Positions 7,430 to 59,835 of a stretch of 64,000 bases of DNA are shown here, piece after piece; the first letter of the stretch is position 1, and each line of letters opens with the position of its first letter. Position numbers and translations under genes: made by a program. The notes under the pieces are model-generated. The model made no database searches. It was not told the origin of the DNA and saw only the letters and a program-made list of their open reading frames with translations. This DNA comes from Dehalococcoidia bacterium (lineage in GTDB: Bacteria; Chloroflexota; Dehalococcoidia; SHYB01): assembly GCA_965261455.1 (NCBI GenBank), contig OZ253453.1:1366374-1430373 (forward strand). Reading direction: 5' to 3'.

Positions 7430-7461
7430 GCCGCCACCACGATCAAACGGAGGAAGCCGTA

Positions 7462-9234: not shown

Positions 9235-9252
9235 CGCTCCTGACCTAGCAAC

Positions 9253-9292
9253 CGAATCGCCCCTGTTGCGGCAGGGGCGATTCGCTTTAGGC
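9253..9292 (+). terminator. hairpin terminator candidate after SBP gene (GAATCGCCCCTG-ttgcgg-CAGGGGCGATTC)
   Basis: 12-bp perfect inverted repeat directly after the stop at 9234, followed by a short T-containing tract. Confidence 0.5.
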
Positions 9293-9360
9293 GCCTTTCG
9301 GGACGAGGAAAGAGTACCCTCACCACGGCGATGGGTTGGAGGAGGCGGTAGGAAGGAAGT

Positions 9361-30660: not shown

Positions 30661-30840
30661 GCCTGCTTCCCCTTCGGCGTCTCCCCCTGGAGACCTTTGC
30701 AAAACCGACTGGGGTTCTGGCGGGGGGAGCGGAGGTGGCATTCACTTAAACCTCTCCCCTGTGGGGGAGACTGAGAGAGGGCACGCGCCGTCAGGCGCGC
30801 AGCGCCCAAGGGGCGCTCCCCCCTCCGCGGCGCAGCTACG
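30661..30840. repeat. modular intergenic hairpin repeat (modules M1+M2), one of at least 9 copies in window
   Basis: Near-identical to 40885-41062, 47703-48070 and 49725-49880. Contains CTCTCCCC-tgt-GGGGGAGA hairpin and GC hairpins. Confidence 0.8.
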
Positions 30841-33234: not shown

Positions 33235-33440
33235 AGTATACAGACCCGCGACACTCGGTCGGCGCCACCGAGGGGAGGCCTTTGCGCAACCCGCCTGTGC
33301 GCAAGCATGGGTGGGGCCGGGAGGTCTTGCCTCTTCTCCCGTGGGGAGAAGATTGAGATGAGGGGCACCCTCGCAACCGCCACGGGTTATCGAAGCCCGC
33401 CACCTTCACGGTCAGTCAGCCCGGTTACGCAAAAGCCTTG
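33235..33440. repeat. modular intergenic repeat (module M3, hairpin CTTCTCCC-gt-GGGGAGAAG)
   Basis: Copies at 47575-47640, 49440-49600, 49900-50010. Confidence 0.75.
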
Positions 33441-33442
33441 AG

Positions 33443-33451
33443 TGGTAGAAT
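33443..33451 (+). promoter_or_regulatory. extended -10 promoter TGGTAGAAT, 43 nt before ATG 33495
   Basis: TGn plus TAGAAT. The same element recurs at identical spacing before each tandem paralogue. Confidence 0.5.
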
Positions 33452-33494
33452 CCGGCGCAGGGCTTGGCTGGCGGCCCGATACGGGAGGGAAACT

Positions 33495-34979
33495 ATGGCG
33501 GCGGTTTCGAGCAAGTCGGCGGCGATTCGCGCAAAGCTCGATCATCCGATCATCGACTCCGACGGCCACCTCATCGAGGTGACCCCCGTGCTCTACGACT
33601 ACATCCGCGACGAGGGCGGCGAGCAGGCGCTCGCAAGATACAAGGCGGCCATAGAGCCACACTGGACGCACCTCTCGTCCGAAGAACGGCGCGACGGCCG
33701 TGTCACCGCCAATACCTGGTGGCTTGCGCCCACCAAGAACGGCCTCGACCGTGCTACGGCCATGATCCCGCGCCTCCTTTCCGAGCGCCTCGACGATCTC
33801 GGCCTCGACTTCTCCGTCCTGTACCCCTCAGCGGGCTTGCTCTACCCAAGGTGGGCCGAAGAGGACGTCCGGCGCGTCAGCTGCCGGGCTTACAACAGGT
33901 ACGTCGCCGACGCCTACGGCCCCTATTCGTCGCGACTGGCCCCGGCGGCACTCGTCCCGATGCACACCCCGGAAGAGGCCATCGAGGAGATGGAGTTCGC
34001 CGTGCGGGAGCTCGGGCTGAAGGCCGCCATGATCGCGGGCCACGTCCGCCGGCCGGTCGGCAAGGTCCAGTCGCGGCATCCCGGCGCCGTGGCGGGGTAC
34101 GGCTGGTGGTTCGACGCGTTCGGCGAGGATAGCGAGTACGACTACGACCCCGTCTGGGCCAAGGCCATCGAGCTTGGCCTCCCCCTGGCGACGCACCACG
34201 GCGGCTTCGGCTTCACCAACAACTCGAACACCAACAACTTCATGCAAAACCATCTCGGCCACTTCGCCAACGCGGCCAATCTGCTCTGCAAGTCGTTGTT
34301 CTTCAGCGGCGTCACTCACCGCTTCCCCAAGCTCCGCATGGGCTTCCTGGAATGCGGCGCGGGATGGGCCGCCGACCTCTACGGCGGCATCGTCGCCCGC
34401 TGGGAGAAGCGCAACCCCGAGGCGCTGCAACACGTCGACCCGAGACTGCTCGACGAGGACCGCGTCATGGATCTCTTCGCCGCCTACGGCGACGAGAAGG
34501 CGGTGGGCAAGCTCGAAGAGATCAAGGAGTCGCTGCGCGCGCCCAGCGTGTTCGCCGCGCAAAACGCCCCGGAGGAGCTCAACGAATTCGCCCGCGCGGG
34601 CATCACCAAGCCCGAAGACATCCGCGACCGCTTCATCCCCAACTTCTTCTTCGGCTGTGAGGCCGACGACCCCATGAACGCCTCCGCGTTCAACACCAAG
34701 ATCACCCCCTTCGGCGCGAAGATCGGGGCCATGCTCAGCTCCGACATCGGCCACTGGGACGTCCTCGACATGCGCGACGTCGTCGAGGAAGCCTACGAAA
34801 TGGTCGAGCACGGCCTCATGACCGGCGACGACTTCCGCGACTTCACCTTCAACAACCCCCTCCGCTTCTTCACCGACCTCAACCCCACCTTCTTCGACGG
34901 CACCGCCATCGAGGACGCGGCGAAGGCGGCCCTCGCCCCTCCCTCCTCCAACCTCTCCCCCGCGGGGGGAGCACCTTAA
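33495..34979 (+). CDS. Amidohydro_2-superfamily protein, tandem paralogue 1 of 4 (about 495 aa)
   Basis: IIDSDGHLIEVTPV metal-ligand N-terminus, gggaggga RBS. C-terminal tail ...PPSSNLSPAGGAP and stop lie inside the downstream hairpin repeat. Confidence 0.8.
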   Translation: MAAVSSKSAAIRAKLDHPIIDSDGHLIEVTPVLYDYIRDEGGEQALARYKAAIEPHWTHLSSEERRDGRVTANTWWLAPTKNGLDRATAMIPRLLSERLDDLGLDFSVLYPSAGLLYPRWAEEDVRRVSCRAYNRYVADAYGPYSSRLAPAALVPMHTPEEAIEEMEFAVRELGLKAAMIAGHVRRPVGKVQSRHPGAVAGYGWWFDAFGEDSEYDYDPVWAKAIELGLPLATHHGGFGFTNNSNTNNFMQNHLGHFANAANLLCKSLFFSGVTHRFPKLRMGFLECGAGWAADLYGGIVARWEKRNPEALQHVDPRLLDEDRVMDLFAAYGDEKAVGKLEEIKESLRAPSVFAAQNAPEELNEFARAGITKPEDIRDRFIPNFFFGCEADDPMNASAFNTKITPFGAKIGAMLSSDIGHWDVLDMRDVVEEAYEMVEHGLMTGDDFRDFTFNNPLRFFTDLNPTFFDGTAIEDAAKAALAPPSSNLSPAGGAP

Positions 34980-35112
34980 GCCCCCCGCAAGGGGAGCACC
35001 TTAAGTCCCCCGCAGGGGGAGCACCTTAAGCCTCTCCCCCTCTGGGGGAGACTGAGAGAGGGCGCGCGCCGCAGGCGCGCGGGTGCCCGGAGGGCGCCCC
35101 TCCCCTCCGCCG
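34952..35112. repeat. tandem 24-bp hairpin units (CCCCCGCAGGGGGAGCACCTTAAG x3) plus 3-hairpin module M2
   Basis: Directly seen. Conserved after paralogues 1-3 (3, 2 and 1 unit respectively). Confidence 0.85.
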
Positions 35113-35114
35113 GG

Positions 35115-35123
35115 TGATAGAAT
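35115..35123 (+). promoter_or_regulatory. extended -10 promoter TGATAGAAT, 44 nt before ATG 35168
   Basis: Same position relative to ATG as the other three copies. Confidence 0.5.
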
Positions 35124-35167
35124 CCGCCGCAGTAGGGGGCCAACGGCCCCGATCGGAGGCGGAAGCC

Positions 35168-36655
35168 ATGGCGGCAACATCGAGCAAGTCGGCGGCGATT
35201 CGCGCAAAGCTAGACCACCCGATCATCGACTCCGACGGCCACCTCATCGAGGTAACGCCCGTCCTGCACGACTACATCCGCGCCGAGGGCGGCGAGAGCG
35301 TCCTCCAACGGGTCAAGAAGAACGCGGATTTCGCGCACTGGACGCAGCTCTCCGCCGACGAGCGGAGCGACGCGCGAACGACCGCCATCACCTGGTGGCT
35401 CGCTCCCACCAAGAACGGCCTCGACCGGGCCACCGCCATGATCCCCCGCCTCCTCGCCGAGCGTCTTGACGACCTGGGGCTGGACTTCTGCGCGCTCTAC
35501 CCCTCGGGGGGCTTGGGCTATCCCCGGCTGCCCGACGAAGAGCTTCGCCGGGTCTGCTGCCGCGCCTACAACAAGTACGTCGCCGACACCTACGGCCCCT
35601 ATTCGTCGCGCATGACGCCCGCGGCGCTGATCCCGCTGCACAACCCCGAAGAGGGCATCGAGGAGATGGAGTTCGCCGTGCGGGAGCTCGGCCTCAAGGT
35701 CGCTATGATCGCGGGCCACGTCCGGCGCCCTATCGGCAAGGTCCGACGCGAGCACCCCGGCGCCGTGGCGGAGTACGGCTCGTGGTACGACGTCTTCGGC
35801 GAGGACAGCGAGCACGACTACGACCCCTTCTGGGCCAAGTCCATCGAGCTTGGCATGCCCCTGGCCACGCACACCGGCGGCTTCGGCTTCACCAACAATT
35901 CCAACATCAACAACTTCATGCAGAACCACCTCGGCCACTTCGCCAACGCCGGCAACCTGCTCTGCAAGTCGCTCTTCTTCAGCGGCGTCACCCGCCGCCT
36001 CCCCAAGCTCCGCATGGCCTTCCTGGAGTGCGGCGCGGGATGGGCCGCCGACCTCTACGCCGGCATCATCGCCCGCTGGGAGAAACGAAACCCCGAGGCG
36101 CTGCAAAACGTCGACCCCCGGCACCTCGACGAGGACCGCATCATGGATCTCTTCGCCGCCTACGGCGACGAGAAGGCGGTGGGCAAGCTCGAAGAAATCA
36201 AGGAGTCGCTGCGCTCGCCGAGCATGTTCGCCACCCACAACGCGCCGGAGGAACTCAACGACTTCGCCCGCGCCGGTATCACCAAGCCCGAAGATGTCCG
36301 CGACCGCTTCATCCCCAACTTCTTCTTCGGTTGCGAGGCCGACGACCCCATGAACGCCGCCGCGTTCAACACCAAGATCACCCCCTTCGGCGCGAAGGTC
36401 GGCGCAATGCTCAGTTCCGACATCGGCCACTGGGACGTCCTCGACATGCGCGACGTCGTCGACGAGGCCTACGAACTGGTCGAGGACGGCCTCATGACCG
36501 GCGACGACTTCCGCGACTTCACCTTCAACAACCCCCTCCGCTTCTTCACCGACCTCAACCCCGCCTTCTTCGACGGCACCGCCATCGAGGACGCGGCCAA
36601 GGCGGCCCTCGCCCCTCCCTCCTCCAACCTCTCCCCCGCGGGGGGAGCACCTTAA
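35168..36655 (+). CDS. Amidohydro_2-superfamily protein, tandem paralogue 2 of 4
   Basis: About 85% identical to paralogue 1 by eye. ggaggcggaag RBS. Confidence 0.8.
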   Translation: MAATSSKSAAIRAKLDHPIIDSDGHLIEVTPVLHDYIRAEGGESVLQRVKKNADFAHWTQLSADERSDARTTAITWWLAPTKNGLDRATAMIPRLLAERLDDLGLDFCALYPSGGLGYPRLPDEELRRVCCRAYNKYVADTYGPYSSRMTPAALIPLHNPEEGIEEMEFAVRELGLKVAMIAGHVRRPIGKVRREHPGAVAEYGSWYDVFGEDSEHDYDPFWAKSIELGMPLATHTGGFGFTNNSNINNFMQNHLGHFANAGNLLCKSLFFSGVTRRLPKLRMAFLECGAGWAADLYAGIIARWEKRNPEALQNVDPRHLDEDRIMDLFAAYGDEKAVGKLEEIKESLRSPSMFATHNAPEELNDFARAGITKPEDVRDRFIPNFFFGCEADDPMNAAAFNTKITPFGAKVGAMLSSDIGHWDVLDMRDVVDEAYELVEDGLMTGDDFRDFTFNNPLRFFTDLNPAFFDGTAIEDAAKAALAPPSSNLSPAGGAP

Positions 36656-36764
36656 GTCCCCCGCAGGGGGAGCACCTTAAGCCTCTCCCCCTCTGGGGGA
36701 GACTGAGAGAGGGCGCGCGCCGCAGGCACGCGGGTGCCCGGAGGGCGCCCCTCCCCTCCGCCGG
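36628..36764. repeat. 24-bp hairpin units x2 plus module M2
   Basis: Near-identical to 34952-35112. Confidence 0.85.
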
Positions 36765-36765
36765 G

Positions 36766-36774
36766 TGGTAGAAT
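36766..36774 (+). promoter_or_regulatory. extended -10 promoter TGGTAGAAT, 44 nt before ATG 36819
   Basis: Conserved spacing. Confidence 0.5.
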
Positions 36775-36818
36775 CCGGCGCAGTACGGGGCCAACGGCCC
36801 CGATCGGAGGCGGAAGCC

Positions 36819-38303
36819 ATGGCGGCAACATCGAGCAAGTCGGCGGAGATTCGCGCGAAGCTGACGCACCCGATCATCGACTCGGACGGCCACCTCATCG
36901 AGGTGACGCCGGTGCTCTACGACTACATCCGCGCCGAGGGCGGCGAGCAGGTGCTGGAGCGGTTCAAGGCCCAGGGAGGGCCGCACTGGACGCAGGTATC
37001 GCTCGACCAGCGCCGCGACGCGCGGATGACCGCGAGCACCTGGTGGCTCGTCCCCACCAAGAACGGCCTCGACCGCGCCACGGCGATGATCCCCCGCCTT
37101 CTCGCCGAGCGCCTCGACGAGCTCGGTCTGGACTTCTGCGTGCTCTATCCCTCGACGGCGCTGCCCTTCCCGAGCCTCGCCGACGAGGAGCTCCGCCGCG
37201 TCTGCTGTCGGGCGTACAACAAGTACGCCGCCGAAATGTACGCCCCCTACGCGCGGCAGATGACTCCCGCGGCGCTGATCCCGATGCACACGCCCGAGGA
37301 GGGGATCGAGGAGCTGGAGTTCGCCTCGCGGGAGCTTGGCCTGAAGGTGGCCGCGATGGCGGGCTACGTCCGCCGGCCCATCAAGAAGTTGCAGCGCGAG
37401 TTCCCAGGGGCGTCGGGACAGTTCAGCGTCTGGCACGACGTCTACGGCGAGGACAGCGAGTACGACTACGACCCCTTCTGGGCCAAGGCCATCGAGCTTG
37501 GCATGCCGTTGTCGACGCATTCGGCGGGCTTCGGCTTCACCAACAACTCCAACATCAACAACTTCATGCAGAACCACCTCGGCCACTTCGCCAACGCCGC
37601 CAACGTGCTCTGCAAGTCGATGTTCTTTAGCGGCGTGACCCGCCGCTTCCCCGCGCTCCGCATGGCCTTCCTCGAGTGCGGTGCGGGCTGGGCCGCCGAC
37701 CTCTACGCCGGCATCATCGCCCGCTGGGAGAAGCGCAACCCCGAGACCCTGCAGGGCGTCGACCCGAGCCTCATGGACGAGGACCGGATCATGGAGCTCT
37801 TCGCGGCCTACGGCGACGCGCGCGCGGTGAGCAAGCTCGAAGAAATCAAGGAGTCGTTAGTCGGGACCGGAGTCCTCGCCGGGCGGAACGCGCCGGAAGA
37901 CCTCAACGACTTCTCCCGGTCCGGCGTAACCAAGCCGGAAGACATCCGCGACCAGTTCGTCCCCAACTTCTTCTTCGGCTGCGAGGCCGACGACCCCATG
38001 AACGCCATCGCGTTCGACTCCAAGATCGCTCCCCTCCGCGCGCGCGTCGGAGCCATGCTCAGCTCCGACATCGGCCACTGGGACGTCATCGACATGCGCG
38101 ACGTAGTCGAGGAAGCCTACGAGCTGGTGGAGGACGGCGTGATGACCGCCGACGACTTCCGCGACTTCACCTTCGCCAACCCCCTCCGCTTCTTCACCGA
38201 CCTCAACCCCGCCTTCTTCGACGGCACCGTCATCGAAGCCGAGGCCAAGGCGGCCCTCGCCCCTCCCTCCTCCAACCTCTCCCCCGCAGGGGGAGCACCT
38301 TAA
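36819..38303 (+). CDS. Amidohydro_2-superfamily protein, tandem paralogue 3 of 4
   Basis: MAATSSKSAEIRAKLTHPIIDSDGHLIEVTPV.... Confidence 0.8.
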   Translation: MAATSSKSAEIRAKLTHPIIDSDGHLIEVTPVLYDYIRAEGGEQVLERFKAQGGPHWTQVSLDQRRDARMTASTWWLVPTKNGLDRATAMIPRLLAERLDELGLDFCVLYPSTALPFPSLADEELRRVCCRAYNKYAAEMYAPYARQMTPAALIPMHTPEEGIEELEFASRELGLKVAAMAGYVRRPIKKLQREFPGASGQFSVWHDVYGEDSEYDYDPFWAKAIELGMPLSTHSAGFGFTNNSNINNFMQNHLGHFANAANVLCKSMFFSGVTRRFPALRMAFLECGAGWAADLYAGIIARWEKRNPETLQGVDPSLMDEDRIMELFAAYGDARAVSKLEEIKESLVGTGVLAGRNAPEDLNDFSRSGVTKPEDIRDQFVPNFFFGCEADDPMNAIAFDSKIAPLRARVGAMLSSDIGHWDVIDMRDVVEEAYELVEDGVMTADDFRDFTFANPLRFFTDLNPAFFDGTVIEAEAKAALAPPSSNLSPAGGAP

Positions 38304-38387
38304 GCCTCTCCCCCTCTGGGGGAGACTGAGAGAGGGCGCGCGCCGCAGGCGCGCGGGTGCCCGGAGGGCGCCCCTCCCCTCCGCCGG
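38266..38387. repeat. 24-bp hairpin unit x1 plus module M2
   Basis: Near-identical to the preceding two intergenic modules. Confidence 0.85.
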
Positions 38388-38388
38388 G

Positions 38389-38397
38389 TGGTAGAAT
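38389..38397 (+). promoter_or_regulatory. extended -10 promoter TGGTAGAAT, 44 nt before ATG 38442
   Basis: Conserved spacing. Confidence 0.5.
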
Positions 38398-38441
38398 CCG
38401 GCGCAGTACGGGGCCAACGGCCCCGATCGGAGGCGGAAGCC

Positions 38442-39899
38442 ATGGCGGCGGCTTCGAGCAAATCGGCGGCGATTCGCGCAAAGCTGACGCATCCGATCAT
38501 CGATGCGGACGGCCACCTCATCGAGGTCACGCCGGTGCTCTACGACTATGTCCGCGCCGAGGGCGGCGAGGGAGTGGTCCGGCGGCTCAAGGCGGAGATT
38601 GAGCAGTCTCACTGGACGCGGCTCTCGCCCGGCGAACGGCGCGGCGCGCGGGTGCCCGCCATCACGTGGTGGCTTGTCCCCGCCAAGAACGGTCTCGACC
38701 GGGCGACGGCAATGATCCCCCGCCTTCTCGCCGAGCGTCTCGACGGTCTCGGTCTCGACTTCTGCGTCCTCTACCCCTCGCTAGGGCTGGACTTCCCCCA
38801 TCTGGCCGACGAGGAGCTCCGGCGGGTCTCCTGCCGGGCCTACAACAAGTACGTCGCCGAGATGTACGCCCCCTATGCGCGGCAAATGACGACGGCTGCG
38901 GTGATTCCGATGCACACCCCCGAAGAGGGGATCGAGGAGCTTGAGTTCGCCTCGCGGACGCTTGGCCTGAAGACCGCCATGATCGCGGGCCACGTCCACC
39001 GCCCCATCGGCGAGGCCCGGCGCGAGCATCTGGGGGCGATTGGGCAATACGGCCCTCAGCGCGGCTCGTGGTACGACACCTTCGGCGAGGACAGCGAGTA
39101 CGACTACGATCCCTTCTGGGCCAAGGCCGTCGAGCTAGGGATGCCTCTGGCGGCGCACTCGTCCGGTTTTGGGTTCACCAACAACTCCAACGTCAACAAT
39201 TTCATGCAGAACCACCTCGGCCACTTCGCCAATGCGGCCAACCTACTGTGCAAGTCGCTGTTCTTTAGTGGAGTAACCCATCGCTTCCCCGCGCTCCGCA
39301 TCGCCTTCCTGGAATGTGGAGCGGGTTGGGCCGCCGACCTCTACGCCGGCATCATCGCCCGCTGGGAGAAGCGCAACCCCGAGGCCCTGCAAGGCATCGA
39401 CCCTCGCCAGCTTGACGAGGACCGTGTCATGGAGCTTTTCGCGGCCTACGGCGACGAGAAGACCGCGGGCAGGGTCGAAGAGATCAAGGCGTCGCTTCGT
39501 TCGCCGAGCCTGTTCGCCGCGCAGAACGCGCCCGATGATCTCAACGACTTCTCCCGGTCCGGCATCACGAAGCCGGAGGACATCCACGACCGCTTCGTCC
39601 CCAACTTCTTCTTCGGCTGCGAGGCCGACGACCCCATGAACGCCGTCGCCTTCGACTCCAAGATCGCCCCGTTCGGCGCGCGCGTCGGCGCAATGCTCAG
39701 CTCCGACATCGGCCACTGGGACGTCATCGACATGCGTGACGTAGTCGAGGAAGCCTACGAGATGGTCGAGCACGGCCTCATGACCGCCGACGACTTCCGC
39801 GACTTCACCTTCGCCAACCCCCTCCGCTTCTTCACCGACCTCAACCCCGCCTTCTTCGACGGCACCGTCATCGAAGCCGAGGCCAAGGCCGCGCGGTAA
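38442..39899 (+). CDS. Amidohydro_2-superfamily protein, tandem paralogue 4 of 4 (lacks the repeat-encoded C-terminal tail)
   Basis: MAAASSKSAAIRAKLTHPIIDADGHLIEVTPV.... Ends ...AEAKAAR. Confidence 0.8.
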   Translation: MAAASSKSAAIRAKLTHPIIDADGHLIEVTPVLYDYVRAEGGEGVVRRLKAEIEQSHWTRLSPGERRGARVPAITWWLVPAKNGLDRATAMIPRLLAERLDGLGLDFCVLYPSLGLDFPHLADEELRRVSCRAYNKYVAEMYAPYARQMTTAAVIPMHTPEEGIEELEFASRTLGLKTAMIAGHVHRPIGEARREHLGAIGQYGPQRGSWYDTFGEDSEYDYDPFWAKAVELGMPLAAHSSGFGFTNNSNVNNFMQNHLGHFANAANLLCKSLFFSGVTHRFPALRIAFLECGAGWAADLYAGIIARWEKRNPEALQGIDPRQLDEDRVMELFAAYGDEKTAGRVEEIKASLRSPSLFAAQNAPDDLNDFSRSGITKPEDIHDRFVPNFFFGCEADDPMNAVAFDSKIAPFGARVGAMLSSDIGHWDVIDMRDVVEEAYEMVEHGLMTADDFRDFTFANPLRFFTDLNPAFFDGTVIEAEAKAAR

Positions 39900-40806: not shown

Positions 40807-40884
40807 AGCATCCCTCCGCAATCGCATTGCTCCAGACCGCCCCTATGCTATAGTCAGCCCGCAACCCCTTCAAGAAGCCGGCGC

Positions 40885-41062
40885 GAAGTCTTTACTCCTC
40901 TCCCTCTGGAGACCCTTGCAAAACCGACTGGGGTCCTGGCGGGGGGAGCGGAGGTGGCATTCACTTAAACCTCTCCCCCTCTGGGGGAGACTGAGAGAGG
41001 GTGGGGGAGGCGGGGGCCGTGCGACCTTGCTGAAGCCCGCCCGTCGAGTTACGCAAAGGTCT
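40885..41062. repeat. modular intergenic hairpin repeat (M1+M2 variant)
   Basis: ctctccctctggagacccttgcaaaaccgactggggtcctggcggggggagcggaggtggcattcacttaaacctctccccctctgggggagactgagagaggg..., matching the 30661 copy. Confidence 0.8.
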
Positions 41063-41091
41063 CCTCTGGGAGCGGGTTGGGGCGAGAGCAC

Positions 41092-42336: not shown

Positions 42337-43356
42337 CTAAACGGCTGGGGCGGCCCAGTCGGCCAAGGCCTGGAGATCATGCGCCCAGAAGAGTATCAAT
42401 CCTTGCTTTTGGGCGGCCTGGAGATTGTGCACTTTGTAGACGCCGCTCAACACCGCGACTGGTACGATCTGACGTTCGCCGAACTCACGGAGCCACACTT
42501 CGGCCTTCGCAGCCGCGTCGTTGTTCAGCCTCTTAACTGAGTTGGTTGACGAATTCGACACCTTGCACTCGATCGCCACCAGACGGCTGTCCCGCAGAGT
42601 CACGACAAAGTCCGCCTTTCGGCTCCCAAGCAGGCTTTCGCCACAGAACTCACCCGGTCTCGGCGCGTTCGACATCGTTGTGATCGTCCTCTGCTCGACC
42701 TGAGTGAATCCATTGGAAGAAAAAAGCTCCCCAACCTTCTTCTCCTGCGCTTCCTTCCCCTCGCTGCGCCTCTTGGTCGCCGCGCGGCTCGCGGCGATGA
42801 GCGCCGCCGACGCCAAGACCGCGCCTTCCCGCTCAGGCCCAGTTGGGCCGCGGCCCTCAGACACCCAAGCGAAACGGCGGCGATCTAGCGCCTGAAGCAC
42901 TACCTCGACGATTCGCTGTGCGAGGTCTGGGTCTTCGCGAAGACGCTTCGCGGAGAGAGAACCTTCTACGAGGACTTTCAAGTCGTCCACGGAAATCGGC
43001 GGGCCCGCGAGATAGCGGACCGCATCCAACAAGTGTTCGTCGGTGAGAACTTGGACAGCTTGCTCTTGAAGCTCCGCGAGGTCGTCCGTTGTCTCCAGCA
43101 GTGTTTTGATGTGCTTTTCGTACGCATCAAACGCTTGGAGGTAGCCCTCCAACGACTCGTCTAGGCGCTCCGTGCGGAATTGCTCTATGGCGAGGAGCCG
43201 GTCGCGCTCTAACTCCTCAGCACTCCAGCGGGGCGGGCTCTGCCGGCTAACCAACCGTAACAACTCCAGAAGCCAGCATCTCGGGAGCCGGAACGAGGAC
43301 TCGCTCCATCTCTTTCGGCTCGAACTTGACGAGCCCGCCGGCGTAGGTCCGTCCAT
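42337..43356 (-). CDS. type II restriction endonuclease candidate (PD-(D/E)xK fold), partner of adjacent MTase
   Basis: RKADFVVTLRDSRLVAIECKVSNSS fits D...(E/D)xK. Overlaps the 3' end of the MTase gene. AT-rich codons (tta, ata, aaa). Start uncertain (43374/43356, or TTG near 43240). Confidence 0.55.
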   Translation of the reverse strand: MDGPTPAGSSSSSRKRWSESSFRLPRCWLLELLRLVSRQSPPRWSAEELERDRLLAIEQFRTERLDESLEGYLQAFDAYEKHIKTLLETTDDLAELQEQAVQVLTDEHLLDAVRYLAGPPISVDDLKVLVEGSLSAKRLREDPDLAQRIVEVVLQALDRRRFAWVSEGRGPTGPEREGAVLASAALIAASRAATKRRSEGKEAQEKKVGELFSSNGFTQVEQRTITTMSNAPRPGEFCGESLLGSRKADFVVTLRDSRLVAIECKVSNSSTNSVKRLNNDAAAKAEVWLREFGERQIVPVAVLSGVYKVHNLQAAQKQGLILFWAHDLQALADWAAPAV

Positions 43357-44971
43357 CGCTGAGACGCACCTCATTCGACAGGTAGTCGCGGAGCGTTTCC
43401 AAGGCGAGCGGCGACAGGGGCTCCCTCGGATATATTCCGTGCGCGATGTTGAGAAGCCGCGCCCCGATGGGATTCAGGGCAAAGGCCGGCGGGCGCCTCG
43501 CCATATAGGTAGCGACGATCGGCGCGGGAGGGCGCAAGTTCACCGCCCACCAGCACTTCCGGTTCTTCGCCACGTAGCCTTCGTGAGCGCCCAAGAGTCG
43601 GGCAACGTGCAGGAATCGTTCGACGGACTTTCGGTCCTCTGTATCAAGGACATCAAGGCCCTCCGGCAGATCAATTACGTACCGGAGGCGCGCCGCATCC
43701 GTCAATACCCCCGACGAGTCGATGATTTCTCTGGCCCTCGTAACGGTGGGGGTGAGGACCCTCGCCGGAAGGCCCTGACTGTGGGCTCCCGCTATCCAAA
43801 CGCGGTTGCTCCCCGTCACAGACCCCCTATGTACACGGCACAACTCGCCAAGCTCGACAAAACCGGCGGGTGCCGCCCGGCGCTTCCCAGGCAGATTGCT
43901 CCAGCGCCTTTCAGTTGCTAGCTGCTCCCGGGGAACGGGATGGCCAGTCTCTAGGTTGCCAAGGTCGTCAATGGTGCCGACCTTTCGGAACCTCACATGC
44001 TCGGAAGGGCTCCCCACCTTGAACGTGGTAATGACGCCCGTTGTGGCTGCGTCGGGAAACGGCTGCGCGGCAGGGTCTACGATCGTGAGCGTCTGCGCGT
44101 GCAAAGACCTGACCAACAGGTCTCGCACGAGCCGTCCATAGTTGACGTCGAGCCACTCCGCCGCGGTAACGAATACGCCATAGTCGCCAGGCTGCGCTTT
44201 TAGTAACGTCGAGAGGAAGAAGTGTGCGTGCAGTCCAGCTAGCTGGCTCGCTCGGAAATCCCGCGCGTCTGCCTCGCGCGTAAGCCATTCCTTCCACTGC
44301 GAATCGATTAGGTGATGCCTAACGTACGGAGGGTTGCCGACAAACAACGTCGGCCCGTCGGCTAGAGGAATCTCAACGCTCCTGTAGTCCTCGACGAGGA
44401 CACTGCTTCGCTGCGAGAAGCCGGCGAGGGCCAGATTGGCGCGGGACACCATGGCGGCCAAGGGATCCACCTCGACGCCGACGAGGTCCGCCTTCGGGAA
44501 GGCGCTACCGGCGGCTAGCAGGAAGCGGCCGGACCCGGCGCCGACATCTACGACGCGATCCGGCGGGCCGTGTCGCCGCCCCCAAGCGATCATCGCTTCG
44601 ACAATCGGCCATGGCGTATAGGTGGCCCCCAACTTGCGGCGCTCGGCGCGGCTCCGGACGATAGCGAAGGCTGCACCCAATGGATCACCGCCCGCAAGCA
44701 CGCGGCGGCGCACTTCGTTCAACTCCGGTGCGGATGGCCGCCACTGCGAGGCAGCCAAGAACGGCGACTCATGCGCTCCGGCGGCAAGGGCGGCCGTTAT
44801 TGCTAGGCGCTCCTCGGTCGCCGCGCAACTCAGCGCGCTTTCCAGACCTTCCGAGGCCGACGCCTCAGCAGTGGACCTCCAGGATTCGAGCGGCGTAAGA
44901 AGGGGCGGACGAAAGACGCCAGTCGCCAAAGCCGAGCGATCGGATTCGGTTGCCGCTGTGAGCCTCGCCAT
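43247..44971 (-). CDS. gamma-class N6-adenine DNA methyltransferase (Eco57I/TaqI-like N6_Mtase with C-terminal target-recognition region)
   Basis: Motif I VVDVGAGSGRFLL and motif IV LFVGNPPYVRH in gamma order. 574 aa. Confidence 0.8.
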   Translation of the reverse strand: MARLTAATESDRSALATGVFRPPLLTPLESWRSTAEASASEGLESALSCAATEERLAITAALAAGAHESPFLAASQWRPSAPELNEVRRRVLAGGDPLGAAFAIVRSRAERRKLGATYTPWPIVEAMIAWGRRHGPPDRVVDVGAGSGRFLLAAGSAFPKADLVGVEVDPLAAMVSRANLALAGFSQRSSVLVEDYRSVEIPLADGPTLFVGNPPYVRHHLIDSQWKEWLTREADARDFRASQLAGLHAHFFLSTLLKAQPGDYGVFVTAAEWLDVNYGRLVRDLLVRSLHAQTLTIVDPAAQPFPDAATTGVITTFKVGSPSEHVRFRKVGTIDDLGNLETGHPVPREQLATERRWSNLPGKRRAAPAGFVELGELCRVHRGSVTGSNRVWIAGAHSQGLPARVLTPTVTRAREIIDSSGVLTDAARLRYVIDLPEGLDVLDTEDRKSVERFLHVARLLGAHEGYVAKNRKCWWAVNLRPPAPIVATYMARRPPAFALNPIGARLLNIAHGIYPREPLSPLALETLRDYLSNEVRLSDGRTYAGGLVKFEPKEMERVLVPAPEMLASGVVTVG

Positions 44972-46306: not shown

Positions 46307-47437
46307 TTAGTTGAGCTTGAAGACCTTCTTAGGGTTCTCCACCAGTATCTGGTACTGCTCCTCCTCCGGCACGTTCTGGAACGCCTTGGCCACGAACTCG
46401 TTGGTGTTGGGCCACAGGGAGGTCGGATGGGGGAAGTCGGTCTCCCACATGATCCGGTCGACGCCGATGACGTGGCGGTAGTGTTCCACCGCCGAGCGCT
46501 CGTACCAGAAGTCGACGTAGCAATGCTGCTTGAAGAGGTCGGTGGGACGGGTGGGCAGGCCCTTGTTCCACAACTGGCCCTGCTCCCAAGCGTAATCGCA
46601 GGATTCGAGGAGCCAGGGGAGCCAGCCGATGCCGGTCTCGGCAGCGACCAGGGTGAGCGTGGGGTAGCGGTCGAAGACGCCCGCGAACAGGAAGTTGGCG
46701 AAGTACTGGGGCTGGATGCTGAAGCCCGAGGCGGCGAGCGCGGCGTCGTTGCGGCGATGCTCCTGCGTGGCGTGCTTCTCAATGCGCATGCTCTGCGGGG
46801 CCGCGCCCGAGCCGTGGACGGTGAGCACGAGGTCGAGATCGACGACCGTCTGCCACAGCGGCTCCCAGTAGGGCGAGCTGTAGTTTTCCAGCCCGCGGGT
46901 GTGCGGCGTCCCCACCAGCATCACACCGCGGTGCCCGTTCTTCGCGTTGTGATGGACCTCTTCCAGCGTCTTCTCCATCGAGTAGTAGACAGGGACGGTG
47001 AGGGCCACGAACCGGTTGGGGTTGACGTTGACCCACTCCTCGGTCTGGTAGTCGTTATACACGCGGACGCACGCGGCCTCGAACTCGGGGTCGAGGCCCT
47101 GGAAGCGGTCACCCGAGACGCCCGTCGTGTTGGCGTACATGACCTGGCAGTCGGTGCCCTCGGAGTCCATCGCCTTCATGCGTTCCTCAGCGACGTACAC
47201 GGACGGGGGGATCATGTCCCACCGGTTCGGGTTGGTGACGCGGTCGGGCATGACGGCGGGGCACGTCGAGAGATAGCCCGTCGGCTTGCCATCCACCCAC
47301 CACTCATCACGCTCGGCACTCTGGCGGATGTGGGGGATGCGGTCGCCCCATTTCTCTTTCGACATGCGGCTGGTCCAGGTGTTGGGTTTTTCCTGAATAT
47401 GCGAATCGACGTCGATCCTGCGATAGGGATAGCCCAC
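46307..47437 (-). CDS. Amidohydro_2 family protein
   Basis: IDVDSHIQEKPNTW motif. GTG 47437 with AGGAGG 8 nt upstream. The track's upstream extension to 47692 runs into the repeat element. Confidence 0.75.
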   Translation of the reverse strand: MGYPYRRIDVDSHIQEKPNTWTSRMSKEKWGDRIPHIRQSAERDEWWVDGKPTGYLSTCPAVMPDRVTNPNRWDMIPPSVYVAEERMKAMDSEGTDCQVMYANTTGVSGDRFQGLDPEFEAACVRVYNDYQTEEWVNVNPNRFVALTVPVYYSMEKTLEEVHHNAKNGHRGVMLVGTPHTRGLENYSSPYWEPLWQTVVDLDLVLTVHGSGAAPQSMRIEKHATQEHRRNDAALAASGFSIQPQYFANFLFAGVFDRYPTLTLVAAETGIGWLPWLLESCDYAWEQGQLWNKGLPTRPTDLFKQHCYVDFWYERSAVEHYRHVIGVDRIMWETDFPHPTSLWPNTNEFVAKAFQNVPEEEQYQILVENPKKVFKLN

Positions 47438-47506
47438 GGTATTCCTCCTGAATTGCGGCCCGCGTTCCCGCGCTCTGATTCGGCCCGCCTGCGCCCCTGA
47501 GAGTAG

Positions 47507-48255
47507 CATAATCCGGCAGCGGAAACCACGACGAACGCCGCCCTTCCCCTCCTGTCTCCTCTCTCCCTCTGGAGACCTTGCGCAACCCGCCCGCGGGCAA
47601 GCATGGGTGGGGCCGGGAGCTCTTGCCTCTTCTCCCGTGGGAGGCCTTTGCAAAACCGACTGGGGTTCTGGCGGGGGGAGCGGAGGTGGCATTCACTTAA
47701 ACCTCTCCCCCTCTGGAGACCTTGCAAAACCGACTGGGGTCCTGGCGGGGGGAGCGGGGGTGGCATTCACTTAAACCTCTCCCCCTCTGGAGACCTTTGC
47801 AAAACCGACTGGGGTCCTGGCGGGGGGAGCGGGGGTGGCATTCACTTAAACCTCTCCCTCACGGAGACCTTTGCAAAACCGACTGGGGTCCTGGCGGGGG
47901 GAGCGGGGGTGGCATTCACTTAAACCTCTCCCCCTCTGGAGACCTTTCCAAAACCGACTGGGGTCCTGGCGGGGGGAGCGGGGGTGGCATTCACTTAAAC
48001 CTCTCCCCCTCTGGGGGAGACTGAGAGAGGGCGGGGGGAGGCGGGGGCCGCGCGACCTTGCTGAAGCCCGCCCGCCGAGTTACGCAAAAGTCTCCTCTCG
48101 GGGAAACTGAAAGAAGGCACACGCCCCAGGCGCGTTGGAGGCGGGCGGGGGCGGCCAGCGGCGCGCCAAAGCCCATCGAAGCCCGCCCCCTTCCGCTCTC
48201 TCCCCCTCTGGAGGACACTGAGAGAGAGCGCCGCCGCGCCCGCCTCCAAGGCCGC
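47507..48255. repeat. composite repeat block: M3 fragment, then 75-bp direct tandem repeat x about 5 (47641-48001), then M2-type hairpin modules
   Basis: Unit ctctccccctctggagacctttgcaaaaccgactggggtcctggcggggggagcgggggtggcattcacttaaac repeated head-to-tail with 1-3 mismatches. No unique spacers between copies. Confidence 0.85.
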
Positions 48256-48285
48256 CGAAAGAGCAGAGAAAGCAAGACTCCCTTG

Positions 48286-49374
48286 ATGCAGCAAGACGTA
48301 CGCGCGATCGTTTTCACCGGCGACGGACGGCACGAAGTGCGGCGGTTCGCCAAGCCCGACCCGCCGGAGGGCGGGCTCGTGCTGCGCGTCGAGGCCGTGG
48401 GCCTCTGCGGCAGCGACGCCGCCCAGCTTCACGGCCATCGCCTCGTCGGCAACGCCGTCTTCCCCGTCGTTCCCGGCCACGAGACCATCGGCCGGGTGGA
48501 GCGCATCGACCCCGCCGGCGACTGGACCGTGCGCGAGGGCGACCGCGTCGCCGTGGACGAAGTGCTCCGCTGCGGAACGTGCCGCTTCTGCCGCGCCGCT
48601 AGCACCCGCTGCGAGCGGCTCAAAGTCTACGGCTACTCCTTCGGCGCGGACGACGGCCCCGGCCTGTGGGGCGGCTTCGGCGAGTACATGGCGATTCTCC
48701 CCGGCACACACCTCATACCGGCGACGGACGCCATGCCCGCCGAGGAGCTCACCCTCTTCGAGCCCCTCGCCAACGCGCTCAACTGGGCCGGCATCGCACG
48801 CATCGCGCCCGGCGACACCGTCGTCGTCCAGGGCCCGGGCCACCAAGGGCTCTGCTGCGCCGCGGCGGCGCAACTCGCGGGCGCCGCCGAGATCATCGTG
48901 ACCGGCACGGGCCGGGACGGTCTCCGCCTCGAAACCGCCGCCGCCGCCTTCGACGCCAAGACCATCGACGTCGACGCGGCAGACCCCGTCCAGCGCGTCG
49001 CCGAGCTCACCGGCGGGGTCATGGCCGACGTGGTCATGGACCTCGCCGACGGCGCCCCCTCGACGGTGCCCCTAGCGGTCAAGATGGCGCGCCGAGGAGG
49101 CCGGGTGCTGCTCGCGGGACTCAAGCACGGCAAGCCCGTCGATGGCCTGTCGAGCGACGAAATCGTCAGCAAGATGCTCACCATTAACGGAGGCGCGGGC
49201 GCGACCCCAGAGACGATGGAGCGCGCCGTGCGCCTCCTCGGCGCGGGCCGCATCCCCTCGAAAGCCCTCCTCGGCAACGTCTACTCCATCGACGACGTAG
49301 ACACCGCCATAGCAGCCCTAGAACGCCGCATCCCCGCCAAAGACGCCGTCCGCGTAAGCCTCAAGCTAAGCTGA
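48286..49374 (+). CDS. zinc-binding alcohol dehydrogenase (MDR) family oxidoreductase
   Basis: GHETIGRV catalytic-zinc motif and CGTCRFCRAASTRC structural-zinc motif. ATG 48286. The track's upstream extension lies in the repeats. Confidence 0.8.
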   Translation: MQQDVRAIVFTGDGRHEVRRFAKPDPPEGGLVLRVEAVGLCGSDAAQLHGHRLVGNAVFPVVPGHETIGRVERIDPAGDWTVREGDRVAVDEVLRCGTCRFCRAASTRCERLKVYGYSFGADDGPGLWGGFGEYMAILPGTHLIPATDAMPAEELTLFEPLANALNWAGIARIAPGDTVVVQGPGHQGLCCAAAAQLAGAAEIIVTGTGRDGLRLETAAAAFDAKTIDVDAADPVQRVAELTGGVMADVVMDLADGAPSTVPLAVKMARRGGRVLLAGLKHGKPVDGLSSDEIVSKMLTINGGAGATPETMERAVRLLGAGRIPSKALLGNVYSIDDVDTAIAALERRIPAKDAVRVSLKLS

Positions 49375-49384
49375 GCGAGGGCGC

Positions 49385-50010
49385 TGGAGCGCGGCGCGGC
49401 GGCGCTGGGGCGCGGCGGAGAGGTCTTGCCCCCTCTCCCGCTGGAGACCTTTGCGTAACCCCCCGCGGGCTCAAGCATGGGTGGGGCCGGCAGGTCTTGC
49501 CTCTTCTCCCCACGGGAGAAGATTGAGATGAGGGGCCCCCTCGCAACCACCACGGGTTAACGAAGTCCGCCACCCTCGCGGTCAGCCCCTCCGCCAACGC
49601 CAAGTCCTCGCCGAAGTGCACCTTCAACCTTTCCCCCTCTGGGGGAAACTGAAAGAGGGCACGCGCCCCAGGCGCGTCGGAGGCGGGCGGGGGGCGGCCA
49701 GCGGCGCGCCAAAGCCCATCGAAGCCCGCCCCCTTCCGCTCTCTCCCTCTGGAGACCTTTGCAAAACCGACTGGGGTCCTGGCGGGGGGAGCGGGGGTGG
49801 CATTCACTTAAACCTCTCCCCCTCTGGGGGAGACTGAGAGAGGGCGGGGGGAGGCGGGGGCCGCGCGACCTTGCTGAAACCCGCCCGCCGGTTACGCAAA
49901 GGTCTCCCCACGGGAGAAGATTGAGATGAGGGGCCCCCTCGCAACCACCACGGGTTATCGAAGCCCGCCACCTTCGCGGTCAGTCACCCCGGTTGCGCAA
50001 AGGCCTCCGC
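49385..50010. repeat. composite block of M1, M3, M2-variant and M3 modules
   Basis: Direct match to modules at 30661, 33235 and 47507-48255. Confidence 0.8.
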
Positions 50011-50194
50011 TGGGAGAGGGTTAGCATGACGGCGCAGCATGGCGGGGTTCGTCGAACGCCAAACCTCACGGCCCGACACTACGCCGAGCTCCTCCCAGGC
50101 TTAGAGGTGGGGTATGCTATCCAGCCGTAGAGGGCAACACGACAGAACAAGGTTGGGGCATTGAAGGAGATGGCAAAGCCAGAGGGACAGGTCA

Positions 50195-51208
50195 ATGTCA
50201 AGCAAGATAGAAGAGTGCATCATTTGGCCGGGGTCTTTCGCGATCGGAGAGCATTTGCCATCAACTGGAATTTATCGTGTGCCCTATTCTTTCCGAGCGG
50301 CTGGAGCATACGAGGTTGCAGACAATCCAAGCTTGATAGATGCACTCAAGGATCTAACCGATGAAGAACGGTCACGTCTGACTACCTGGCTTATTGATCA
50401 AAGGTCGCTGGGTGTTAGGCGTCCCATAGTAACCCAAGAAATCATCGATTACGCTAAGCATCGCCGCCCATTCCTGGTTCACGAGAGAGCCAATAGACTC
50501 TTGAGGTACCTTGTAGAACAAACGAACTCGATAGGTCAGGAAATAGAGATTGGCTGCGAAGGTTCTCGCAATAATTTTGGAGAGTGGCTTCCGTCTGATT
50601 CTCAAAGCCTCTGGAGCGCGACGGCTTGGTCTGAGTCAGTACAGTCGAGCGAAGTCAAACCCTTCGCCAAATATCTAGAGGAAAAGGGCTGGATTACATT
50701 TTCCCTCGCTGGCAGATGCGGACGATTGACTGTAACAGTCGACGGATACAGCCACATTGAAGATATCGCAACGAGAACTGACTCCGCACAGGCCTTCGTC
50801 GCCATGTGGTTTCACGACGAAATGAATGAGGCCTATAAGAAGGGTATCGAGCCAGGTATAGAAGCGGCGGGCTACAAAGCACTGAGAATCGATCAGAAAG
50901 AACACACGAATAAGATCGACGACGAGATCATTGCCGGAATTAGGCGCTCGCGGTTCTTGGTAGCCGACTTCACTCAAGGAGAAGACGGGGCACGAGGTGG
51001 TGTCTACTTTGAGGCAGGTTTCGCGTTTGGACTGAACATCCCCATCATCTACACTTGCCGAAAGGACGTGAAGGACAAACTGGCCTTCGATACCAGGCAA
51101 TACAACCACATCCTGTGGGAAACGCCCGAAGAACTGCGGGATGCCCTAACCAAGCGGATTGGCGCCGTGATCGAAGACGGCCCGCTGCTACAAAATGAGC
51201 TCCCATAG
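50195..51208 (+). CDS. two-domain protein: unrecognised N-terminal domain (about 190 aa) plus C-terminal TIR-like/SLOG (NDT-like Rossmannoid) domain; candidate defence or nucleotide-processing effector
   Basis: C-terminus FVAMWFHDEM...RFLVADFTQGEDGARGGVYFEAGFAFGLNIPIIYT matches the F-I-x-H-G-H ... a-R-x-N-V-x-F-E-x-G-y-f-x-G-x-L signature of TIR-like (DUF2321-type) / nucleoside 2-deoxyribosyltransferase-like domains. The gene is visibly AT-richer (about 50% GC, aga/ata/tta codons) than its flanks. Confidence 0.6.
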   Translation: MSSKIEECIIWPGSFAIGEHLPSTGIYRVPYSFRAAGAYEVADNPSLIDALKDLTDEERSRLTTWLIDQRSLGVRRPIVTQEIIDYAKHRRPFLVHERANRLLRYLVEQTNSIGQEIEIGCEGSRNNFGEWLPSDSQSLWSATAWSESVQSSEVKPFAKYLEEKGWITFSLAGRCGRLTVTVDGYSHIEDIATRTDSAQAFVAMWFHDEMNEAYKKGIEPGIEAAGYKALRIDQKEHTNKIDDEIIAGIRRSRFLVADFTQGEDGARGGVYFEAGFAFGLNIPIIYTCRKDVKDKLAFDTRQYNHILWETPEELRDALTKRIGAVIEDGPLLQNELP

Positions 51209-59689: not shown

Positions 59690-59835
59690 TCAACACAGTT
59701 GCTCTCCCGCTGGGAGAGGGTTGGGGTGAGGGCGGGGGGCGGCGGGGCGCGCCAAGGTGGACGAAGCGCGCCGCTATCAAGGATGGACGCTTAGAGGGCG
59801 CCACAGGGCGGCGCCCCTCCCGTCCCTGAGAGTGT
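59690..59835. repeat. REP-like hairpin module copy (CTCTCCC-gct-GGGAGAG; GGGCGCC...GGCGCCC) abutting the IS110 3' end
   Basis: Related to M1/M2 modules elsewhere in the window. Confidence 0.6.

Follow-up and report, generated by a model that had tools for sequence, protein, structure and literature searches.

A strain-variable tandem array in a Dehalococcoidia intergenic region: probable growth of a minisatellite within a miniature mobile element

The clusters of repetitive extragenic palindromes (REP) and bacterial interspersed mosaic elements (BIME) of enterobacteria bind IHF, gyrase and Pol I, and in work associated with Bachellier, Clement, Wilde and Hofnung the loops of REP/BIME hairpins are said to be specific insertion sites of IS1397 and ISKpn1, with a 3-4-bp duplication. 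The mycobacterial interspersed repetitive units (MIRU) of the variable-number tandem repeat (VNTR) loci of Mycobacterium tuberculosis, said to have been described by Supply et al. in 1997 and 2000, reportedly lie within operons in gene orientation and carry small open reading frames (ORFs) overlapping with the stop and start codons on either side. Correia elements of Neisseria duplicate TA and carry promoter and IHF sites, and we know of neither internal tandem amplification nor hairpin-loop targeting among them. The pneumococcal BOX, boxA-(boxB)n-boxC, is a modular miniature inverted-repeat transposable element (MITE), in which strains differ in the tandem number of boxB, slippage or unequal crossover being the proposed cause (Croucher et al. 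2011, PMC3049150). As regards Dehalococcoidia or Chloroflexota, nothing relevant on REP or MITE sequences was found in the literature. In this study we analysed a stretch of 64,000 nt from a Dehalococcoidia bacterium (contig OZ253453.1; hereafter the window), in which five units of about 75 bp stand head to tail between an amidohydrolase gene and an alcohol dehydrogenase (ADH) gene. This array is a real VNTR whose copy number differs among strains, and we consider it probable that it is a minisatellite grown inside a non-autonomous mobile element (a MITE) of this uncultured lineage.

The array and its copy number among strains

Tandem Repeats Finder (TRF) recovered a single array at 47640-48014 (period 75, 5.0 copies, 96% matches, score 694), which confirms the head-to-tail repeat that a previous inspection of the letters alone (the sequence-only reading) had placed between the amidohydrolase gene, starting at 47437, and the ADH gene, starting at 48286. 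The period of 75 bp stood; the units themselves are not uniform, being 74, 74, 75, 74 and 75 bp long along the array. The 58-nt body of the unit occurs eight times in the window and the hairpin motif CTCTCCCCCTCTGGAGA (up to three mismatches) 15 times, against 0 and 0.42, respectively, expected from shuffled sequences, and all these occurrences are on the plus strand. Comparison with intergenic regions that hold single copies revealed that the unit corresponds to the left half of a larger MITE-like element, about 157 bp long, in support of the earlier suggestion of a minisatellite derived from a mobile REP or MITE. Each unit is made up of the left terminal inverted repeat (TIR) GGAGRCCTTTGCAAAACC, a 44-nt body, and the 5' arm and loop of a hairpin (CCTCTCCCCC TCT). 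The parts of the locus are the following:

47558..47639, plus strand: older truncated MITE copy (half hairpin, left TIR and 5' half of a type-2 hairpin)
47640..48012, plus strand: the array, five MITE left halves (from TRF, module split, unit alignment and TIR coordinates)
47628-47701, 47702-47775, 47776-47850, 47851-47924 and 47925-47999, plus strand: the units in hairpin-first phase
47938..48095, plus strand: last unit and tail, together a complete 158-bp MITE, with right TIR GTTACGCAAAAGTCTCC at 48079-48095 and TCT on both sides
48000..48031, plus strand: type-1 hairpin module, CCTCTCCCCC-TCT-GGGGGAGA-CTG-AGAGAGGG, that is, Y-arm, loop, R-arm, linker and a purine tail mirroring the R-arm
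48096..48228, plus strand: additional hairpin modules in the interval from the MITE to the ADH gene (3' half of type 1v, GGGGAAACTGAAAGAAGG; GC-rich trailer; type-1-like hairpin at 48198-48228)

In the older truncated copy the left TIR GGAGACCTTGCGCAACC lies at 47571-47587 and the 5' half of the type-2 hairpin reads CTCTTCTCCC GTG; the array-bearing MITE is located within this hairpin. The last unit and its tail match the MITE copy at 49751-49907 (98% identity between 47926-48077 and 49739-49890 in a repeat search), and 48100-48196 is duplicated at 49642-49738. The type-1 module, the commonest repeat of the family, has six exact copies in the window. The five left halves of the array are accompanied by just one right half, and in every other allele, too, the left halves alone are repeated.

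The sequence-only reading had counted 1-3 substitutions per copy, which holds for units 2-5. Unit 1 is strongly different: alignment of the units showed a divergent hairpin (TCTTCTCCCGTGGGAGG) and two diagnostic substitutions that are absent from units 2-5. The first unit retains its own hairpin TCTTCTCCCGTGGGAGG in all alleles, and in the window it also has the two diagnostic substitutions; the added units, like units 2-5, are of the type of the copy at 49751. Three ORFs across the array (47603-47923, 47722-48024 and 47871-48110) do exist, although not for the reason proposed, namely that the divisibility of 75 by 3 leaves all frames open: there is one TAA per unit, in CACTTAAAC, so that one frame is closed each time, and the ORFs run on because the 1-bp differences in unit length shift the frame.

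Copy number was compared in 11 assemblies, that is, the window and ten fetched loci (L001-L010), anchored by a 100% identical amidohydrolase. Upstream of this gene there are five units in the window, four in L007, two in each of L002, L006 and L008, and one in L010; the orthologous locus has none in L001, L003, L004, L005 and L009. Head-to-tail repeats in the 10-100-bp range, present in 0, 1, 2, 4 or 5 units at the same locus, are what defines a VNTR or minisatellite, and the strain variability that had been predicted is thereby established. A private variant (GACTGCGG) common to both units of L008 indicates duplication or homogenisation in situ. Tandem amplification of hairpin-bounded modules is common in this lineage: across the window and the fetched loci we found 72 tandem arrays with a period of at least 20 bp, most of them built from such modules, and the periods of the hairpin-module arrays fall at 25-31, 42-46, 58, 74-75, 83-84 and 148-288 bp. 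A second VNTR, with a 25-bp unit (CCCCCGCAGGGGGAGCACCTTAAGC), was also observed, in three copies (34957-35032) and two copies (36632-36681) in the window, six in L006 (17230-17380) and two in other strains.

In the five array-less strains the place of the array and of the 5' part of the ADH gene is taken by a noncoding element of about 800 bp. It was also observed, at about 90% identity, in three loci of other metagenome-assembled genome (MAG) species. At its start is a promoter, TTGACA-N18-TACCAT, and next to this the palindrome GAACATATGTTC, which we take to match a LexA box of the Gram-positive/Dehalococcoides type (Cheo-box-like; SOS box). It has no match in Rfam and is too conserved for a covariation test. 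Its locations are:

L003, ~9130-9881: ~800-bp element, in an array-less strain
L065, 4299-5135: ~800-bp element
L011, 6352-7115: ~800-bp element
L064, 3569-4331: ~800-bp element

The MITE, its hairpin targets and the probable origin of the array

The complete element consists of a left TIR GGAGACCTTTGCAAAACC, a G-rich body of 44 nt ending in CATTCACTTAAAC, an internal hairpin module with CT and GA arms (CCTCTCCCCC-TCT-GGGGGAGA-CTGAGAGAGGG), a GC-rich tail and a right TIR GGTTACGCAAAGGTCTCC. The TIRs are 17 nt long (GGAGACCTTTGCRNAAC; as a pair, GGAGACCTTTGCRNAAC ... GTTNYGCAAAGGTCTCC). At 40908/41064, GGAGACCCTTGCAAAAC matches the inverted GTTACGCAAAGGTCTCC in 14 of the 17 positions, with a similar result at 49751/49907 and 47938/48095, and the ends of the MITE pair in the DNA fold. 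Copies of 157-158 bp are present in intergenic positions at three or four sites of the window and in L024, L052, L073 and L105. The intact ones in the window are 40908-41064, 49751-49907 and, as the third, 47938-48095. The copies outside the array are:

40908..41064, plus strand: intact 157-bp MITE, single-copy, located in the 5' leader of a different amidohydrolase gene and flanked by a TCT/TCT duplication
30689..30782, plus strand: truncated copy with left TIR, body and type-1-like hairpin, no right TIR
49443..50008, plus strand: nested MITE cluster downstream of the ADH gene, the outer element in a type-3 hairpin with GCT/GCT duplication, the inner one the intact MITE 49751-49907

The dispersed single copies claimed in the sequence-only reading are real and intergenic at ~30677 (here the right end of the element is missing), 40896 and 49739, while the supposed copy at 59690 turned out to be a related hairpin module, CTCTCCCGCTGGGAGAGGGTTGGGGTGAGGGC.

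Across about 1 Mb of related sequence we counted 75 occurrences of the TIR motif, which in nearly all cases directly adjoins the 5' arm and loop of a half-hairpin. Five of 18 candidate pairs of left and right TIRs (about 11 of the pairs being independent) show a perfect 3-bp duplication (TCT, GCT, TCT, GTG and AAG). Since complementary hairpin arms lie immediately outside these five pairs, the MITE would appear to insert into 3-nt hairpin loops and to duplicate the loop. Direct evidence from the strain population comes from the site at 40.9 kb, which was found in three states: empty, with an intact type-3 hairpin (L003), filled with the whole 157-bp element (the window, L004, L005, L008, L009 and L010), or carrying the element with a 75-bp internal deletion between short direct repeats (L001, L002 and L007). 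The element shows the defining features of a MITE, namely small non-coding dispersed copies, TIRs, target-site duplications (TSDs) and an empty site. A longer insertion of ~700 bp, with the ends CTTTGCA.../...GCAAAG, was observed in a type-1 hairpin loop of L010 (~9511-8822, reverse strand); it is flanked by a ~12-bp duplication (CCCCTCTGGGGG), no transposase gene was seen in it, and it may be a longer relative of the MITE.

Inspection of 121 instances of the hairpins revealed mosaics of a few types, in each of which a 3-nt loop joins a CT-rich 5' arm to a GA-rich 3' arm. A scan with the 28-mer of the type-1 internal hairpin module, covering one genome per species, yielded at least 97 stretches on both strands, all from Dehalococcoidia MAGs and from at least five species, and in at least five MAG species of this class hairpin modules and MITE ends are pervasive. 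The 56-nt unit body is rarer than the hairpin and was found at four loci of one related MAG, with 89-95% identity. A 32-mer of the unit gave no exact match in genome contigs or in metagenome contigs, the invariant 21-mer GCGGRGGTGGCATTCACTTAA gave none in a second metagenome scan, and the body is absent from the JGI metagenome contigs in both scans; the unit is therefore rare beyond the few assemblies in which it was found. The 91 hairpin-bearing intergenic regions comprise 40 convergent, 40 tandem (15 sense, 25 antisense) and 11 divergent ones, approximate counts obtained with a crude GC-frame gene caller. Such enrichment downstream of genes, with no rule as to orientation, is characteristic of a selfish repeat, and the same gene-orientation bias has been described for BOX, RUP and SPRITE elements (PMC3049150).

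The type-1 hairpin is also the specific insertion site of IS481-family insertion sequences (Pfam domains rve and LZ_Tnp_IS481). In L002 such an element is inserted immediately 3' of GAGAGAGGG, where 6 bp (AGAGGG) are duplicated; its left junction recurs at other, unrelated genomic sites in two further MAGs (L012 and L103). An independent insertion in L007, in the opposite orientation, lies within the R-arm and has duplicated GGGGG. The ends of these elements (GTACAGACCGGGGAGATAGGTAAC) differ from the TIRs of the MITE, and their duplications are 5-6 bp long. The insertions are located as follows:

L002, ~9625 and 8330: IS481-family insertions
L006, ~9637: IS481-family insertion
L007, ~9493 and 8210: IS481-family insertions
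L012, ~2126: IS481-family insertion
L103, ~111: IS481-family insertion

Another kind of repeat, a REP of canonical appearance whose head is GTAG (GTAGGGGCGATTCGCGAATCGCCC, variant GTAGGGGCAACCCTCGTGGTTGCCC), occurs frequently in related MAGs, where it is interleaved with the CT/GA hairpins:

Window, 39933: GTAG-head REP
L011, L015, L025, L027, L033, L035, L067, L080, L085 and others: GTAG-head REP

The origin of the array that we favour would begin in intergenic DNA full of short CT-arm/GA-arm hairpin modules, which would serve as targets of the MITE. On entry of the ~157-bp element into a 3-nt loop, the loop would be duplicated, and the left flank (5' arm and loop), together with the TIR start GGAGA, would come to resemble the MITE internal hairpin 75 bp downstream, giving a direct repeat of 15-20 bp. 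The resident MITE (unit 1) would thus have entered the type-2 hairpin, a state that appears to be preserved in L010, where the 3' half of this hairpin (GTG GGGAGAAGATTGAG) comes after a single-unit MITE with a GTG/GTG duplication. The resident copy may then have been joined at its internal hairpin to a second MITE of the 49751 type (units 2-5), by nested insertion or by hairpin-to-hairpin recombination, and this joining probably brought in the ADH segment, itself bracketed by MITEs and hairpins. Finally, the 75-bp duplication would have grown and shrunk, by replication slippage or unequal crossover, to the 1, 2, 4 and 5 units seen today.

Several points weigh against this proposal. In about 1 Mb of related sequence no pair of TIRs 0.8-4 kb apart with a transposase-like gene was found, and because no autonomous partner was detected, the mobility of the MITE is deduced only from TSDs and presence/absence alleles. 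Several TIR pairs have no TSD, and their flanks look recombinant. The copies in the window all have one orientation, with the hairpin genome-wide on both strands. The conservation of the body between species (89-95%) could reflect constraint and not just recent spread, and a role of a transcribed array in the ADH leader is possible. As to the uniform orientation, a replichore or strand effect found no support, as no pattern was seen along the 2.79-Mb chromosome OZ242299.1.

Alternative explanations and the question of function

One idea concerns the hairpins themselves. In 251 of 252 instances the first three nucleotides of the purine tail that comes after the YYG linker mirror the last three of the R-arm, a relation that spans five triplet classes (AAA, AGA, AGG, GGA and GGG), which are few as independent classes. 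The tail is the mirror image of the 3' arm of the hairpin and not its complement, so that Watson-Crick pairing cannot explain it. Because of this regularity, the CT/GA modules may be read as foldbacks of a Y-arm, an R-arm and a mirrored R segment that could form an intramolecular purine-motif triplex, the triplex being the specific landing and recombination site for the MITE, IS481 and the turnover of cassettes. We regard this reading as rather unlikely; if true, it would define a structurally new class of bacterial interspersed repeat, with the array as a footprint of its recombination. Examples of the mirrored tail are:

Window, 48000-48031, 35031-35062, 49504-49535 and 59702-59735: hairpin modules with mirror tail
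L011-L107: about 250 instances

It is improbable, in our judgement, that the array was produced purely by repeated transposition, with successive MITEs entering the hairpin loop of the previous copy and no slippage involved. Such a course would suit an element that carries its own preferred target, the type-1 hairpin; all internal junctions read exactly ...CCTCTCCCCC TCT|GGAGACC..., as loop insertion predicts, nested MITEs do exist (e.g. 49443-50008), and unit 1 and units 2-5 are different variants. However, the right half (R-arm, tail and right TIR, ~85 bp) should then be repeated as well, and there is one for five left halves; since only left halves are repeated, slippage or unequal crossover is favoured over repeated nested transposition. 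The variant private to both L008 units likewise points to local duplication, and arrays of TIR-less modules with periods of 25-31 bp show that amplification can proceed without transposition.

There is no evidence of a dedicated function of the array, and such a function is unlikely because half of the strains lack the array entirely. One proposal of this kind is a functional cis-regulatory or non-coding RNA element, either a multi-hairpin 5' leader or a tandem array of small RNAs, in which the copy number would tune translation or stability of the ADH transcript or the units would be processed to small RNAs. The array is indeed co-oriented with the ADH gene and upstream of it, each unit can fold (the CT arm with a G-rich segment, -30.6 kcal/mol), the body is well conserved between species, and the MITE at 40908-41064, which stands between a promoter-like TGCTATAGT and a start codon, indicates that the element is tolerated in transcribed leaders. 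The folding energy is nevertheless no better than that of shuffled controls (z = -1.1 to -1.3), there is neither an Rfam match nor a promoter-like site upstream of or within the array, and strains with an identical flanking protein carry 0-5 units, half of them having lost both the array and the ADH gene. We consider this proposal to have only a small chance of being correct; the variant copies are too few for a covariation test.

Rfam 15 gave no match at the gathering score in the whole window, and a search of 47400-48300 at E<=10 returned sub-threshold chance matches, the best being whalefall-1 (E = 0.048) and most of the others eukaryotic miRNA families. When RNA and DNA folds were compared with dinucleotide shuffles, neither the array nor a single unit nor the hairpin modules of types 1 and 3 gave a significant z value (about -1.7 to +0.1); the type-2 hairpin alone folds better than its shuffles (z = -2.45).

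For modulation of the flanking promoters, as envisaged in the sequence-only reading, no evidence was found. A promoter scan detected no sigma-70-like site in or next to the array, and terminator-like matches lie outside it and do not exceed shuffled controls. The likely promoter of the amidohydrolase gene, too, lies outside the array, and its motif TGCTACTCT is conserved in all 11 alleles, with or without the array. Similar TGn-TAnnnT motifs upstream of other genes, at 40843 and 35113, are consistent with its being the -10 element; it was read from the sequence and not called by the consensus promoter scan. The features concerned are:

46307..47437, minus strand: Amidohydro_2 gene flanking the array, start at 47437 (Pfam PF04909, E=2e-28)
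47500..47508, minus strand: probable extended -10 of the amidohydrolase promoter, TGCTACTCT

The likeliest effect of the array is a passive one, through the altered length and sequence of untranscribed or leader DNA upstream of the ADH gene and through the homology it offers for further rearrangement; beyond such spacing or untranslated sequence it would have no function of its own.

For a protein-binding array that organises or insulates the divergent genes, be it a nucleoid-protein, gyrase or IHF cluster as in BIMEs, an iteron-like or a centromere-like array, the regular arrangement in a divergent intergenic region would be suitable; but no evidence for it was found, there are no replication or partition genes nearby, the copy number is unconstrained, the array is dispensable in half of the strains, and the same unit is single-copy elsewhere, so that we hold this explanation to be very improbable. 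Two more specific candidates were rejected: a CRISPR array, as there are no spacers (the 56 nt between the hairpins are the same in every unit) and no cas genes were seen nearby, and an iteron or partition array, as there is no replicon context. Lastly, although tandem repeats are a classic assembly problem, a mis-expanded or collapsed repeat can for practical purposes be dismissed, because six of the 11 assemblies (the window and five related contigs out of ten), which come from several ENA runs, show the same structure with 1, 2, 4 or 5 units, identical flanks and internally consistent unit variants, and the 375-bp array is far below the length of long reads (the contig names, of the form ctgN_10x_l, are presumably those of long-read metaMDBG-like output). 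Neither of the two findings that would have spoken against the sequence-only reading, an assembly artefact or a unit confined to this locus, was obtained.

Flanking genes and relation to known repeat systems

The 376-aa product of the amidohydrolase gene is encoded with identical sequence by 22 or more contigs from several metagenome assemblies in ENA. Exact-protein look-ups of the ADH, an SDR and two other amidohydrolases found none on record, the 46307-47437 product alone being matched. The ADH gene is bracketed on both sides in the window by MITE and hairpin clusters and is spanned by TIR pairs. Its presence depends on the strain: L006 and L008 have the gene, a 3' remnant is left of it in L001, L003, L005 and L009, and it was not called in L002, L004, L007 and L010, with no remnant seen in the stretch of L004 that was read. 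The interval from the amidohydrolase gene to the conserved UGSC-like genes was seen to hold different cargo in almost every strain, and is a hot spot of gene content: ADH with a Nuc_deoxyrib_tr-like gene, a UvrD-like helicase, a GIY-YIG protein, an SLFN/AlbA_2 protein, a PhD/PIN toxin-antitoxin pair, IS481 copies or unknown ORFs, depending on the strain. Hairpin and MITE repeats bracket this cargo in the window and in the loci read.

48286..49374, plus strand: Zn-dependent ADH gene (Pfam ADH_N and ADH_zinc_N)
L001-L010, locus coordinates ~6800-10000 (window 47438-50200 and beyond): gene-content hot spot

Other observations concern the remainder of the window, in which no tRNA or tmRNA genes were found. 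A gene for an Eco57I-like methyltransferase (574 aa) with an adjacent gene (RE_XamI in L002) occupies 42337-44971 in the window and L002 only; this is a second variable spot, at which most other strains have thiolase and ChsH2-like genes. At 33438-39899 there are four tandem paralogous Amidohydro_2-like genes (period ~1.65 kb, 80-93% DNA identity) with hairpin modules between them, and at least the first of them has its stop codon within the TTAAG of the 25-bp repeat. Two large ORFs contain coding repeats of 9/18 bp (GGACCGGCGGGCCCAGCG, Gly-Pro-Ala-type triplets) at 7543-7637 and 11199-11290, which suggests collagen-like repeat proteins.

The array may be useful as a strain marker and also serves as a warning for annotation, as it yields spurious ORFs of 79-106 codons and an amidohydrolase ORF artificially extended to 461 codons. 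More generally, the lineage carries a previously undescribed mosaic repeat system of hairpin modules, a MITE that appears to target their loops and IS481-family elements that target the hairpins, and this system marks hot spots of gene-content difference between strains with otherwise identical proteins. If the repeats drive this turnover, they would help to explain the diversification of these paralogue-rich genomes.

Among the described systems, the closest analogues are the pneumococcal BOX and the MIRU-VNTR loci, and BOX is the best of them. Like this element, BOX has non-coding MITE-like modules with terminal inverted modules and TSDs (PMC3049150); in both, an internal module is tandemly repeated in strain-variable number, copies are over-represented between convergent genes, they cluster and insert into one another, and large ones give spurious ORFs. 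The repeated part here is, by contrast, the left half including the TIR, and not a separate middle module; the element apparently enters hairpin loops and duplicates 3 bp, its host is an uncultured member of the Dehalococcoidia, and the element is GC-rich (RUP and SPRITE are described as AT-rich, and BOX is not stated to be so; PMC3049150). MIRU share with our unit the intergenic location, a length of 40-100 bp, dispersal, tandem arrangement at some loci and copy-number polymorphism among close strains, but they have no TIR, TSD or hairpin-loop targeting, and there is no sequence similarity.

As regards REP and BIME, the two families have in common mosaics of short extragenic hairpins and linker motifs that are targets of mobile elements, with the MITE here apparently entering hairpin loops and IS481-family elements the hairpin foot. 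The hairpins, CTCTCCCCC-NNN-GGGGGAGA, do not have the GTAG/CTAC head of REPs of the type associated with RAYT transposases, and the clusters are direct and not inverted as in REP/REPIN. Correia elements and NIMEs of Neisseria and the cyanobacterial Nezha resemble the element as MITEs of 100-160 bp with TIRs and short TSDs that are abundant in intergenic regions, are co-transcribed with neighbouring genes and act as recombination sites.

The likeness to BOX is one of architecture only, drawn from the published description (PMC3049150), and with a different composition and host the element is to be seen as an analogue of BOX and not as a member of that family. To conclude, the element stands outside the sequence families compared, and the array itself is an ordinary VNTR.

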